Positions 49,357 to 52,541 of a DNA stretch of 64,000 nucleotides are shown piece after piece. The notes beneath the pieces are model-generated. The model saw nothing but the letters and a program-made list of their open reading frames with translations, ran no database searches and was not told the DNA's origin. A program made the translations under genes and the position numbers. The stretch comes from Candidatus Woesebacteria bacterium (GTDB taxonomy: Bacteria; Patescibacteriota; Microgenomatia; UBA8517). The stretch spans positions 724,582-788,581 of the forward strand of contig CP058602.1 of assembly GCA_013426185.1 (NCBI GenBank), in the 5' to 3' direction. Each line of letters starts with the position of its first letter. Within the stretch, counting starts at the first letter, position 1.

Positions 49357-49557
49357 CACTTTGAAAATTAAAGATTTCAACGTTCAAATTATGACTGGGA
49401 GACCTGCAAAGCAGGCACAAGCTTTTGCTTGTGAGGAAGACGAGTATACTGCAAGTCAAAGCAAGTATACCTCCGTCACTTTTTGAGGGTTTGATCCTGG
49501 CCCAGGGTGAACGCTAGCGGCGTGCCTTAAGCATGCAAGTGGGACGGTCCGCAGGAC

Positions 49558-50008
49558 CGAACAGTTAACTGTTAACAATTAACAAATTAACCAATTAAGA
49601 ATAAAATAAGCTGTGGAAACTTTTAGGTTTTTGAATTTTAAAGTTTACGAAGATAGTAAATCTTTTTACAAGAAATGTATTTTGTTGACTAGAAGCTTTA
49701 AGAGGGATTACTGGGAGCTTAAAGACCAACTTTTGAGAGCTGCTCTTTCAGTTTGTCTTAATATAGCCGAAGGTTCAGCAAAATATTCAGATAAAGATTT
49801 TAAACGATTTTTAGAGAATTCTTTGGGATCAATTAATGAGTGTTTAGCTTGTTTAGATATTGCTTTGGAAAATAGAATAATTTCTAAGATTGAATTCACT
49901 AGACTTCAGAAAGAAGCAGAGTCAATTGCAAAGCAACTAGGAGGTTTGATAAAGAAACTCCGCAATTCTTCTTAGTTGTTAATTTTGTTAAATTGTTAAT
50001 TTGTTAAA
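49558..50008 (+). other. 16S helix-6 intervening sequence carrying an ORF, closed by a long AT-rich stem
   Basis: rRNA stem TCCGCAGGACCG / GGTTCTGTCCTGCGGA flanks the insertion; extended complementary arms gaacagttaactgttaacaattaacaaattaacc / ggttaatttgttaattgttaac... Confidence 0.7.
49613..49975 (+). CDS. four-helix-bundle protein (rRNA intervening-sequence protein / Avd-like) encoded inside the 16S intervening sequence
   Basis: family signature ...LRAALSVCLNIAEGSAKYS...; paralog of 15910..16284. Confidence 0.7.
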   Translation: METFRFLNFKVYEDSKSFYKKCILLTRSFKRDYWELKDQLLRAALSVCLNIAEGSAKYSDKDFKRFLENSLGSINECLACLDIALENRIISKIEFTRLQKEAESIAKQLGGLIKKLRNSS

Positions 50009-51395
50009 GGTTCTGTCCTGCGGATAGTCGCGAACGGCTGAGTAACATGTAAGAACCTACCCAGAGGTGGGGAATACCCCCGCGAAAGCGGGGCTAATAC
50101 CGCATACGCTGCGTAGCAGCGAACTTTCAACACGCTCACACTGTGAGCTTCCAACAAACAAAAGACAACTTAATATTAGAGTTGTAAGTTGATTGTTGTT
50201 AGTTGAAGGTTGGCTGCTACGCAGCAAAGGGCGTAACTGCCCGCCTGTGGAGGGGCTTGCACACCATCAGCTAGTTGGTAGGGTAATGGCCTACCAAGGC
50301 TACGACGGTTAGGGGAGATGAGAGTCTGTTCCCCCAGAATGGGACTGAGACACGGCCCATACACCTACGGGTGGCAGCAACTGGGAATCGTGCGCAATGG
50401 GCGAAAGCCTGACGCCGCGACGCCGCGTGTGGGATGAAGGCCTTAGGGTTGTAAACCACTTTTGCCAAGTACCATACGGCACTTGGCGAATAAGCACCCG
50501 CTAACTACGTGCCAGCAGCTGCGGTAATACGTAGGGTGCGAGCGTTACCCGGATTTATTGGGCGTAAAGAGTACGTAGGCGTTCTGGTAAGTCACATTTT
50601 AAAGACTGAGGCTCAACCTCAGGAGTGGATGTGATACTGCCAGAATCGAAGAACTTAGGGGCTACTGGAACTTATCATGTAGGGGTGAAATCCGTTGATA
50701 TGATAAGGAACGCCAAGGGTGAAGACAGGTAGCTGGGAGTTTCTTGACGCTGAGGTACGAAAGCTAGGGGAGCGAAAGGGATTAGAGACCCCTGTAGTCC
50801 TAGCCGTAAACTTATGCTCGCTAGCCCTGTGCCATATGGCGCGGGGTGTAAGCTAACGCGTTAAGCGAGCCGCCTGGGGAGTACGGCCGCAAGGCTAAAA
50901 CTCAAAGGAATTGACGGGGACCTGCACAACCAGTGGAGCATGTGGTTTAATTCGAGACGAACCGAAGAACCTTACCCGGGTTTGACATTCTACCGTTTTA
51001 GTTTTCCAGAAATGGAGAGCGATCCTTAAGAAATTAAGGAAGGTAGAACAGGTGTTGCATGGCTGTCGTCAGCTCGTGCCGTAGGGTGTTCCCTTCAGTG
51101 GGGTAACGAGCGCAACCCCTGTCCTGTGTTAAATGTTCACAGGAGACTACCCTCCATTCGGAGGGGGGAAGTGGGGACGACGTCAAGTCAGCATGGCCCT
51201 TATGTCCGGGGCGACACACATGCTACAATGGAGCCTAACAATGGGTTGCCAAGCGGTAACGCGGAGCTAATCCCATCAAACGGCTTCTCAGTGGGGATTG
51301 AGGGCTGAAACCCGCCCTCATGAACGCGGAATTGGTAGTAATCGGAGATCAGCCAAGCTCCGGTGAATACGTTCTCAGGTCTTGTACACACCGCC

Positions 51396-52266
51396 AAAAG
51401 ATGCGCGCGTGGCAGTCATATATTCTAGTAAGTTAAAATCTTACCTTTCCTTGATGGTTTACCTTATCATCTTGGAATGTAGCCAAAAAAAAGTGGCAGT
51501 CCTATTGCAAAGTGAGAGCTTTGCTTTTACGGGTAACCGGTAGGACGGAGGGCCTGAGGCAAATGGCAGGGACAACACAAAAATGCTTGGCGACTTCTGC
51601 TGGGCGGTCAGAAGGAAGTCGATTTAAAAGCAGTTGTTCATGCCGGGAACAGAATATATGATGACCCATGGAGATCCTAGAAGGAACGAAGTAATTGCCT
51701 TTTAGGAAGTCAGCATTTCCATAGTAGATAATTGACAGTATACGGAAAATATTCGTATACTTGAATTATCGAAGGGAAATACGTAATGCTTCCAGCTTCA
51801 TATGTTGTTGGACTGACATAAGGCGAGGGATGTTTCCTAGTATCTATTCGAGCTGATAACAGAATCGATTTACGATTTTTTATTGCTCAAGCTGAAGGAA
51901 ATAAACCTCTGCTTTTGATGGTTCAGCAGTTTTTCAAAGTAGGGACTGTTTATCAAAAGAGTGCTAGACGCACTGGTCGTCTTCCCGCTTGGGTATTTGA
52001 AGTCACAAAAAGGGATGATATTTACAATGTCATAATACCTTTTTTCAAACGACATAAACTTTTAGGCTACAAAGCGAAAAGTTTTGATGCTTTTTGCCAA
52101 ATAGCCGAGATGGTTAAGGGAAGGCAGGATGTGCGCAAGCTCTCTAAAGAAGAACTCTCTTTTATTAGGAAGTTGAAGCTGGGGATGAATAAACATTACG
52201 GCTCGCTAAGTGCGGGAAAGCCGCTCGCTTAGTGGGAACGCACGATAACTTCGATGAAGTGCAATC
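51396..52266 (+). other. 871-nt intron-like insertion in 16S at the position equivalent to E. coli about 1400 (between CACACCGCC and CGTCA), containing a degenerate LAGLIDADG ORF
   Basis: flanking exon sequence reconstitutes the universal CCGCCCGTCA decoding-centre sequence; boundaries ambiguous by 1 nt; no canonical group I (U/G) or group II (GUGYG/AY) ends. Confidence 0.55.
51786..52232 (+). pseudogene. LAGLIDADG homing endonuclease remnant with in-frame TAA replacing the acidic codon of the motif (YVVGLT*GEGCF)
   Basis: translation from ATG 51786 read directly; downstream frame continues into ORF 51915..52232. Confidence 0.6.
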
Positions 52267-52541
52267 CGTCAAGTCAGCAAAGTTGGGGGCACCCGAACTC
52301 TCCTTGTTGGAGGGGAAGGTGAAACCAGCGATGAGGATTAAGTCGTAACAAGGTATCCGTCCTGGAAGGGGCGGATGGATCACCTCCTTTCTAAGGAGTG
52401 TAATCTACACCCCAGTTTTAATGTCGCCGTTTATCTGCTTCTTTTGGTTAATAAAAGAGGAAAAAACGGGGCACCTCTCCCAGTCATAATTTGGATGTTG
52501 AAGTTTCCTTTTTTCTCTTTAGGGCTGCTTTTGAAATAAAA

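Follow-up and report, generated by a model that had tools for sequence, protein, structure and literature searches.

The DNA analysed here, a 64,000-nt stretch of a Candidatus Woesebacteria genome (contig CP058602.1, positions 724,582 to 788,581; hereafter the window), contains the genome's single 16S rRNA gene (49479-52390, plus strand), which is split by three inserts. The largest of them, an 871-nt insert in the decoding-centre sequence, is recognisable by comparative structure as a group II intron of IIC-like type, predicted to splice, and its LAGLIDADG homing endonuclease (LHE) gene carries a very recent premature stop codon. The split gene is very probably explained by three 16S inserts of known kinds, namely this compact group II intron, an intervening sequence (IVS) in helix 6 and a hairpin expansion. 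All three inserts are optional, and each is of a kind already described for rRNA genes of the Candidate Phyla Radiation (CPR), to which the host of the 16S gene, Candidatus Woesebacteria, belongs; the truncated open reading frame (ORF) of the intron is annotated under that name in NCBI (P0062), on an 818,817-bp contig of a metagenome-assembled genome.

The triple interruption of the gene, already proposed in the initial annotation, is confirmed by the Rfam matches (RF00177), which form a 5' piece starting at 49479, a body at approximately 50009-51395 and a 3' piece at 52267-52390. A scan of the whole window mis-set the ends of this interrupted gene, and the ends 49479 and 52390 were obtained from scans of the flanks. 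The 871-nt insert (51396-52266) separates ...ACACCGCC from CGUCAAG and breaks the decoding-centre sequence CCGCCCGUCA, at a site which, by our own E. coli numbering, we take to be C1402/C1403-C1404. Its boundary is ambiguous by one C: the positions 51396-52266 and 51395-52265 yield an identical spliced product, and the 3' end reads ..AAUC/C or ..AAU/CC (the slash marks the splice site), according to the placement of the ambiguous C. In a related locus, L017, the upstream exon piece CACUGC has a single C, and CACUGCCCGUCA is restored only if the intron ends in ..GCAAU/, which favours, at this one locus, the 51395-52265 placement and a canonical AU 3' end. A family scan of genomes returned 18 loci; both junctions were readable in 16 of them, all with the gene at the same 16S site. 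The recurrence at one site and the group II fold described below agree with the earlier proposal that the decoding-centre insert must be an intron.

Since the insert could not be assigned to group I or group II from Rfam scans, the classification was built on comparative structure. The fold of the 5' part was derived from the RNAalifold consensus and pair counts for the RNA upstream of the ORF in the 16 loci (alignment A2), while domains V and VI were assessed on alignment A3. The 5' part comprises 88 pairs with 96.1% of cells paired (38-47% in slid controls), 58 of them with compensatory changes, and domains V and VI comprise 18 pairs, 95.6% paired and 11 compensatory. For the whole layout of domains I-VI this amounts to 88 + 18 pairs, about 96% paired, 69 of which show compensatory changes. 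Six helical domains with an ORF in domain IV, as in group II introns, are thus found across the 16 loci.

The intron begins with a 5'-terminal linker, 9 nt long in the window (51396-51404) and variable in sequence and length (about 8-35 nt) in the relatives. It is followed by GCGCG (51405-51409), the counterpart of the group II 5' GUGYG motif, in which GCGC is invariant across the 16 loci and the fifth base is G or C; the conserved stretch after the linker reads GCGC(G/C)UGGCAGU. Domain I (51408-51670, helices 1-11) is closed by a long-range helix of 51408-12 with 51666-70, and domain II (51671-51711, helix 12) has compensatory changes in 5 of its 12 pairs. The J2/3 trinucleotide AGC (51712-51714), also present in the Oceanobacillus IIC intron, lies within the block GGAAGUCAGC, invariant in the 16 loci, and precedes domain III (51715-51780, helices 13-14). 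The invariant block GGAAGUCAGC..CAUAGUAG..GAAGG aligns to the RF01998 (group-II-D1D4-1) consensus GAAgUCAGCAGA..CAUAGUAG..GAAGG, with a score of 19.3 bits only. Domain IV (51782-52200) has a basal stem formed by CGUAAUG (51782-88, containing the ATG) and CAUUACG (52194-52200), with a compensatory change in L006 (CGUAGUG with CACUACG) and G.U variants in other loci. In the RNAalifold consensus the 5' GCG was matched to the CGU that immediately precedes the ORF; these three invariant pairs were dropped for the co-varying domain IV stem.

Domain V (52202-52236, helix 1 of alignment A3) is 35 nt long, with a 10-bp lower helix, a UC bulge (52225-26), a 4-bp upper helix and a GAAAG loop; its 14 pairs are 94% paired, 7 of them compensatory, against 33-43% in slid controls. 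The CGC triad is at 52204-06, and the pair G52205.U52233 lies six pairs below the bulge, so the length of about 34 nt, the 2-nt bulge and the AGC or CGC triad with G.U that characterise group II domain V are all present. CGC replaces AGC in IIC introns. The domain VI-like element (52240-52266) consists of a 4-bp helix (52240-43 with 52259-62), all four pairs of which co-vary, a conserved 15-nt loop and the tail AAUC. The ribozyme retains every family-invariant position. The last 10 codons of the ORF and its TAG stop fall inside domain V; in relatives, the domain V helix changes from UAAG paired with CUUA to CCGG paired with CCGG, and the protein tail changes from SLSAGKPLA, followed by the stop, to SPGAGKPLAG.., with the stop lost. 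In L005 (about 3440-3517) the catalytic 3' region of the intron is enlarged by two extra hairpins (about 35 nt), inserted after domain V and before the GGGAAC linker.

The hairpin loop GGGCGGU of domain I (51602-51608) can base-pair across the exon junction ACCGC(C)/C and is taken as exon-binding site 1 (EBS1), whose pairing would continue beyond the junction for one or two pairs. This pairing is preserved in L004 and L017 by a compensatory change, with GGGCAGU in the loop opposite ACUGC in the exon. No conserved candidate for an EBS2 complementary to the upstream exon was found in the intron. In the proposed mechanism, the intron RNA would fold into domains I-VI, and the GGGCGGU loop would set the splice sites by pairing with ACCGC(C), at the end of the 5' exon, and with one or more bases at the start of the 3' exon. 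The first splicing step would most likely be hydrolytic, because the variable linker (9 nt) parts the exon from GCGCG and a branch-point adenosine is not visible, and exon ligation would restore CCGCCCGUCA. The 5' linker, EBS2 loss and branch-site loss have been described for LHE-encoding group II introns (PMC13190283, PMC4424553); together with the altered EBS1 they make up the published signature of rRNA group II introns splicing upstream of a GUGYG-type motif. Thus the ends of the insert, neither of which had been considered canonical and which had left its class unclear in the initial annotation, are those of a group II intron whose 5' motif is displaced (9-nt linker, GCGCG) and whose 3' end, if the C is shifted, is a canonical AU.

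Several observations count against this assignment. GUGYG is absent at the 5' splice site, GCGC(G/C) being found 9 nt inside the intron instead; the domain V loop is 5-6 nt long rather than a GNRA tetraloop; and a bulged branch-point adenosine was looked for in domain VI, none being recognisable. The covariation between EBS1 and the exon consists of one substitution, seen in two loci that are possibly related. The Rfam scan for group I and group II classes recommended in the initial annotation was run with relaxed E-value limits over 1.15 kb, over a 121-nt stretch and over the relative L007, and no model reached its threshold: RF00029 had no match even on the 121 nt, RF01998 scored 19.3 bits on the window insert compared with a cut-off of 35, and L007 was also without an Rfam group II match. 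Finally, the contiguous EBS1 pairing with the 3' exon looks IIA-like, and the neighbouring bacterial family is assigned to IIC in one paper (PMC13190283) and to IIB1 in an older review; the subclass may be IIC, IIB1 or IIA-like.

The failure of all Rfam intron models to reach threshold also fits a different fate of the 871-nt insert, namely excision without ligation, which would leave a ribosome with 16S rRNA split at the decoding centre into fragments of ~1400 nt and ~125 nt. Many unclassified inserts occur in CPR rRNA genes, and non-ligated IVSs are known in bacteria (PMC11270868). However, simple excision requires neither the conserved multi-domain fold, nor domain V, nor the loop co-varying with the exon, and the long RNase III-type flanking stem, as at helix 6, is absent around this insert, which makes such a fate very unlikely. 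The LAGLIDADG_1 ORF could suggest a group I intron, since LAGLIDADG genes are usually hosted by introns of that class; such introns abound in CPR rRNA genes (PMC11270868), and one is found elsewhere in the window. Yet the 5' exon ends in C rather than U, the intron ends in C or U rather than G, there is no match to Intron_gpI (RF00028) even at E 10 over 1.15 kb, and the co-varying structure is of group II type, so that this class has a negligible chance of being the right one. An archaeal-type bulge-helix-bulge intron was set aside, as a co-varying ribozyme core is present; the archaeal splicing endonuclease is not known from bacteria.

Metagenomes were also scanned for the intron-less junction. 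Intron-less alleles were found in 26 related contigs, each 84-94% identical to the window 16S; none of these 26 alleles was an intron-less or spliced sequence of the same species.

The group II intron contains a stop-inactivated LAGLIDADG_1 homing-endonuclease gene of 148 codons (51786-52232), which matches PF00961 with an E-value of 1.3e-15 when the stop is masked. Its codon 12 (51819-51821) is TAA, and in relatives it is GAA, encoding Glu (alignment A1): the homologues read GLT-E-GEGCF, and the stop of the window is at that E. The protein has more than 250 homologues, and among the matches listed nearly all are full-length (139-219 aa). Codon 12 corresponds to LAGLIDADG position 6, the first acidic residue of the motif, which aligns to D or S in I-OnuI. 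Two codons past the TAA, the Glu of codon 14 (motif position 8) aligns to the conserved Glu of both I-OnuI motifs; we take it to be the catalytic residue, as it is the engineered active-site position in an entry named 'E178D'. The initial annotation placed the stop at the catalytic Asp/Glu of the motif; the stop is real and terminates the protein at residue 11, ahead of the catalytic Glu codon, so that no intact endonuclease is encoded, but it falls two codons before the catalytic position.

The gene recurs with 100% identity in six assemblies built from different SRA runs, and all of them carry the TAA. At 99.6% identity, contig L051 departs by one indel and three substitutions over 1026 nt and reads GAA at codon 12. 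The TAA in six independent assemblies and the GAA in such a close strain indicate that the mutation is real and very recent. The initial annotation had allowed for a sequencing error, and an assembly or sequencing error that conceals an intact gene of the organism could account for the GAA of L051; moreover, the authors of a CPR survey caution that interrupted LHE genes could stem from faulty assembly (PMC11270868). Nevertheless, an error is highly improbable, as the TAA recurs with 100% identical flanks in the six assemblies, and L051 differs at two other positions as well, which marks it as a separate strain. The stop is not reassigned either: the long ORFs of the window end in TAA, TAG or TGA, TAA terminating 11 of 29, which indicates the standard genetic code with TAA as an ordinary stop and rules out an alternative code. 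Downstream of the TAA the frame is open for 105 aa (51915-52232), and this remnant, annotated as a gene in NCBI (P0062), had been regarded as a possible maturase. Its expression as a splicing maturase, or readthrough of the TAA, is nonetheless very unlikely: the remnant is without the LAGLIDADG helix, which provides the dimer interface and the catalytic Glu, nothing supports such a role, and the open frame needs no other explanation than the recency of the mutation, with 3 substitutions in 1026 nt between this copy and the intact allele. Besides, the LHE of a fungal group II intron failed to promote splicing (PMC4424553), and in the L017 copy of the window-family intron the ORF is gone and the ribozyme is kept, from which it follows that the protein is dispensable for keeping the intron. 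This ORF-less copy is a later stage of the same decay.

Normally, the LAGLIDADG gene of domain IV would act at the DNA level and spread the intron to 16S alleles that lack it. A single G-to-T substitution (GAA to TAA, codon 12) seems to have just inactivated the endonuclease gene in this lineage, which probably places the element at the first step of the decay cycle that homing-endonuclease genes usually go through. As the invariant positions are kept and the endonuclease gene is dead, the intron is predicted to be still spliceable but immobile.

Comparison with published 16S intron sites of CPR bacteria, suggested in the initial annotation, revealed a known class of such elements. In the survey of Tsurumaki et al. 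(2024; PMC11270868), group-II-like intervening sequences (ISs) of CPR are restricted to 16S position ~1400, with LAGLIDADG_1 present in 39 of 53 and reverse transcriptase in none; LHEs broken by stops were noted there too. The window intron shares with this class (16IS9) the CPR host, the 16S ~1400 region, a single-domain LAGLIDADG_1 ORF and the absence of a reverse transcriptase. It belongs to 16IS9 by site, LAGLIDADG_1 and CPR host, and the 53 ISs may be of the same family as the window intron. The two differ in that the class was assigned by Rfam hits with E < 1e-5, without structure (PMC11270868), whereas the window copy is below the Rfam group II thresholds.

A known bacterial family of group II introns that encode LHEs is the one at the rns-1396 site, assigned to IIC; a 5' linker occurs in every member, EBS2 is absent and domain IV houses a single-motif LHE (Liu et al., 2026; PMC13190283). 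Its exons are ..CUUGUACA / CACCGC, the site being GUACA/CACCGC (Table S4, PMC13190283), and it is listed almost only in Thiotrichaceae (Thiomargarita) (PMC13190283). The window intron has the same 5' linker, lack of EBS2, single-motif LHE in domain IV, compact ribozyme and location in the 16S 3' minor domain. However, its site is after ACCGC(C), 6-7 nt downstream, its EBS1 is GGCGGU rather than a match to GUACA, and the LHEs are only 28% identical. Given the distance between the sites and the different EBS1, it is not an rns-1396 member by site, and the CPR family to which it belongs, with more than 250 proteins, is outside the set of Liu et al. (PMC13190283). Both kinds of intron occur in one 16S gene of L017 (JBBDKV010000002.1, Patescibacteria; ~2578-3992), separated by a 6-nt micro-exon, CACUGC: the upstream group II intron is at the rns-1396 site and has an intact LAGLIDADG_1 ORF (93 bits), and the downstream one is the ORF-less copy of the window family (nhmmer, 294 bits). 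The sequence profile of the window family matches the 5' part of the 1396-site intron of L017 (E 9.7e-6), with a weak co-linear match at J2/3 to domain III, which indicates that the two families share a backbone.

Fungal mitochondrial rRNA group II introns with LAGLIDADG ORFs splice 1-33 nt upstream of a GUGYG-type motif (PMC4424553). Like the window intron, they have an rRNA host, a LAGLIDADG ORF, upstream splicing, an altered pairing between EBS1 and intron-binding site 1 (IBS1), and have lost EBS2 and the branch-site motif. Unlike it, they are of type IIB1 and mostly encode double-motif enzymes, while the window intron is bacterial, has a CGC triad and encodes a single-motif enzyme. The best structural relatives of the protein by sequence are in the I-OnuI family (E 1e-18 to 1e-26), where LAGFTSGEGCF and LTGFADAEGSF align to the GLTEGEGCF motif of the window family. 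The I-OnuI family enzymes are two-domain monomers, whereas the window protein has one domain, is presumably a homodimer when intact, and is cut at residue 11.

For the most part, our analysis agrees with the surveys, which describe CPR 16S genes crowded with introns and intervening sequences and a decay of homing-endonuclease genes after fixation of their intron. The new points are modest: a site 6-7 nt downstream of rns-1396, and an ORF overlapping domain V. We lean slightly towards the view that the window intron stands for a second lineage, in bacteria, of group II introns with LAGLIDADG genes; it would be large (>250 proteins) and CPR-specific, its target shifted 6-7 nt downstream from the rns-1396 site of Thiomargarita via a changed EBS1 loop, and with the ORF running through domain V. 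If so, such introns would be common among bacteria, and not limited to Thiotrichaceae and mitochondria. As the endonuclease frame runs through domain V, the RNA and protein constraints overlap, and the family provides a natural test set for the tolerance of a group II ribozyme to a 5' linker and a domain V-overlapping ORF. The window also captures the first inactivating step: a single base has changed, and a 99.6%-identical strain still carries the intact allele. Finally, a structural assignment is now available for a class of CPR inserts missed by standard Rfam models; because of these misses, automated annotation will get the size of such 16S genes wrong or leave the insert without a class.

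The helix-6 insert is a classical intervening sequence. Helix 6 is extended into an AT-rich stem of ~65 bp (49540-50032; arms 49540-49604 and 49966-50032), recognised by its inverted repeats and minimum free energy fold (z -5.9). Enclosed by it is an ORF of 120 aa with a GTG start (49613-49975, plus strand), which encodes a protein of the 23S_rRNA_IVP family, Avd-like four-helix-bundle proteins (PF05635, E 1.2e-26, 93.4 bits at a cut-off of 33.8). The stem and the family assignment are as initially annotated. The notion that this family normally resides in 23S genes does not hold for CPR, where 18 such ORFs are found in 16S ISs and 4 in 23S ISs (PMC11270868). The family has been linked to the Avd proteins of diversity-generating retroelements (DGRs) (PMC10053308). 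As in other rRNA IVSs encoding 23S_rRNA_IVP, a long stem surrounds a small ORF of the family inside an rRNA helix, the difference being that the host is 16S helix 6 and not 23S. The stem is a duplex of the kind that RNase III cuts, and, judging by it, the insert is probably excised from the precursor without religation.

The IVP protein has 279 homologues. Relatives with 79% and 70% identity, from Woesebacteria (P0124) and Levybacteria (P0154) contigs, are also encoded at the 16S helix-6 position. Among relatives this site is polymorphic, being empty, occupied by an IVP ORF or occupied by a GIY-YIG ORF. The IVP state is found in the window lineage, in L001 and in the contigs encoding P0124 and P0154; seven relatives have a plain helix 6 of 60-95 nt; and in L003 (~940-1270) an insert of ~290 nt contains a GIY-YIG nuclease domain (Pfam E 6.7e-15). 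Sister lineages thus carry unrelated ORFs at one and the same rRNA site. In L002 (~870-1190) helix 6 has an insert similar to that of L003, read by eye only. In L056 (1201-1563) and L057 (1201-1569), IVP homologues with 62-67% identity are free-standing genes outside rRNA, with rpmB and a gene for a peptidase M50 as neighbours; the family moves between inserts in rRNA and ordinary genomic loci.

The third insert (50108-50225, plus strand) is a 118-nt hairpin with a perfect 13-bp basal stem (fold -67.9 kcal/mol, z -8.4), in line with its initial description as a perfect-stem expansion. It follows immediately after AAUACCGCAUA, and in our own reading it belongs to helix 9. This expansion is common to the window and L001 only, relatives having a hairpin of ~14 nt in its place, and other expansions are present at the same site in L003, L011 and L015. 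It is a lineage-specific expansion of a variable helix.

The window has a GC content of 39% and, according to Rfam, contains 16S, 23S (55916-60062) and 5S rRNA genes, all on the plus strand. The 16S and 23S genes are 3.5 kb apart, the gap being occupied by a minus-strand gene (52787-54940) for a 717-aa ATPase of the TraG/TrwB/DUF87 type and two tRNA genes (54992-55823); therefore, the rRNA genes do not form one simple operon. The 23S gene exceeds the Rfam model by about 1.2 kb, the surplus consisting of several AT-rich hairpin-like inserts (e.g., 106, 201, and about 100 nt) with repeated words of the AACAA/UUGUU type; no credible ORF was found within them. At 9423-9745 on the minus strand, a match to Intron_gpI (9469-9726, 60 bits, Rfam) splits a tRNA gene into two halves. 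Its anticodon loop, read by eye as CUCA/UAA, would make it a tRNA(CAU); ARAGORN gave no call. The ORF next to it (9801-10487, plus strand) has Pfam hits to helix-turn-helix (HTH) domains only, despite a LAGLIDADG-looking 'LYWAEGF'. Several of the contigs used for comparison, L001, L004, L009, L012 and L013, have Woesebacteria-like 16S genes but were deposited as 'uncultured Gammaproteobacteria/Pseudomonadales' metagenome-assembled genomes, probably owing to binning errors.

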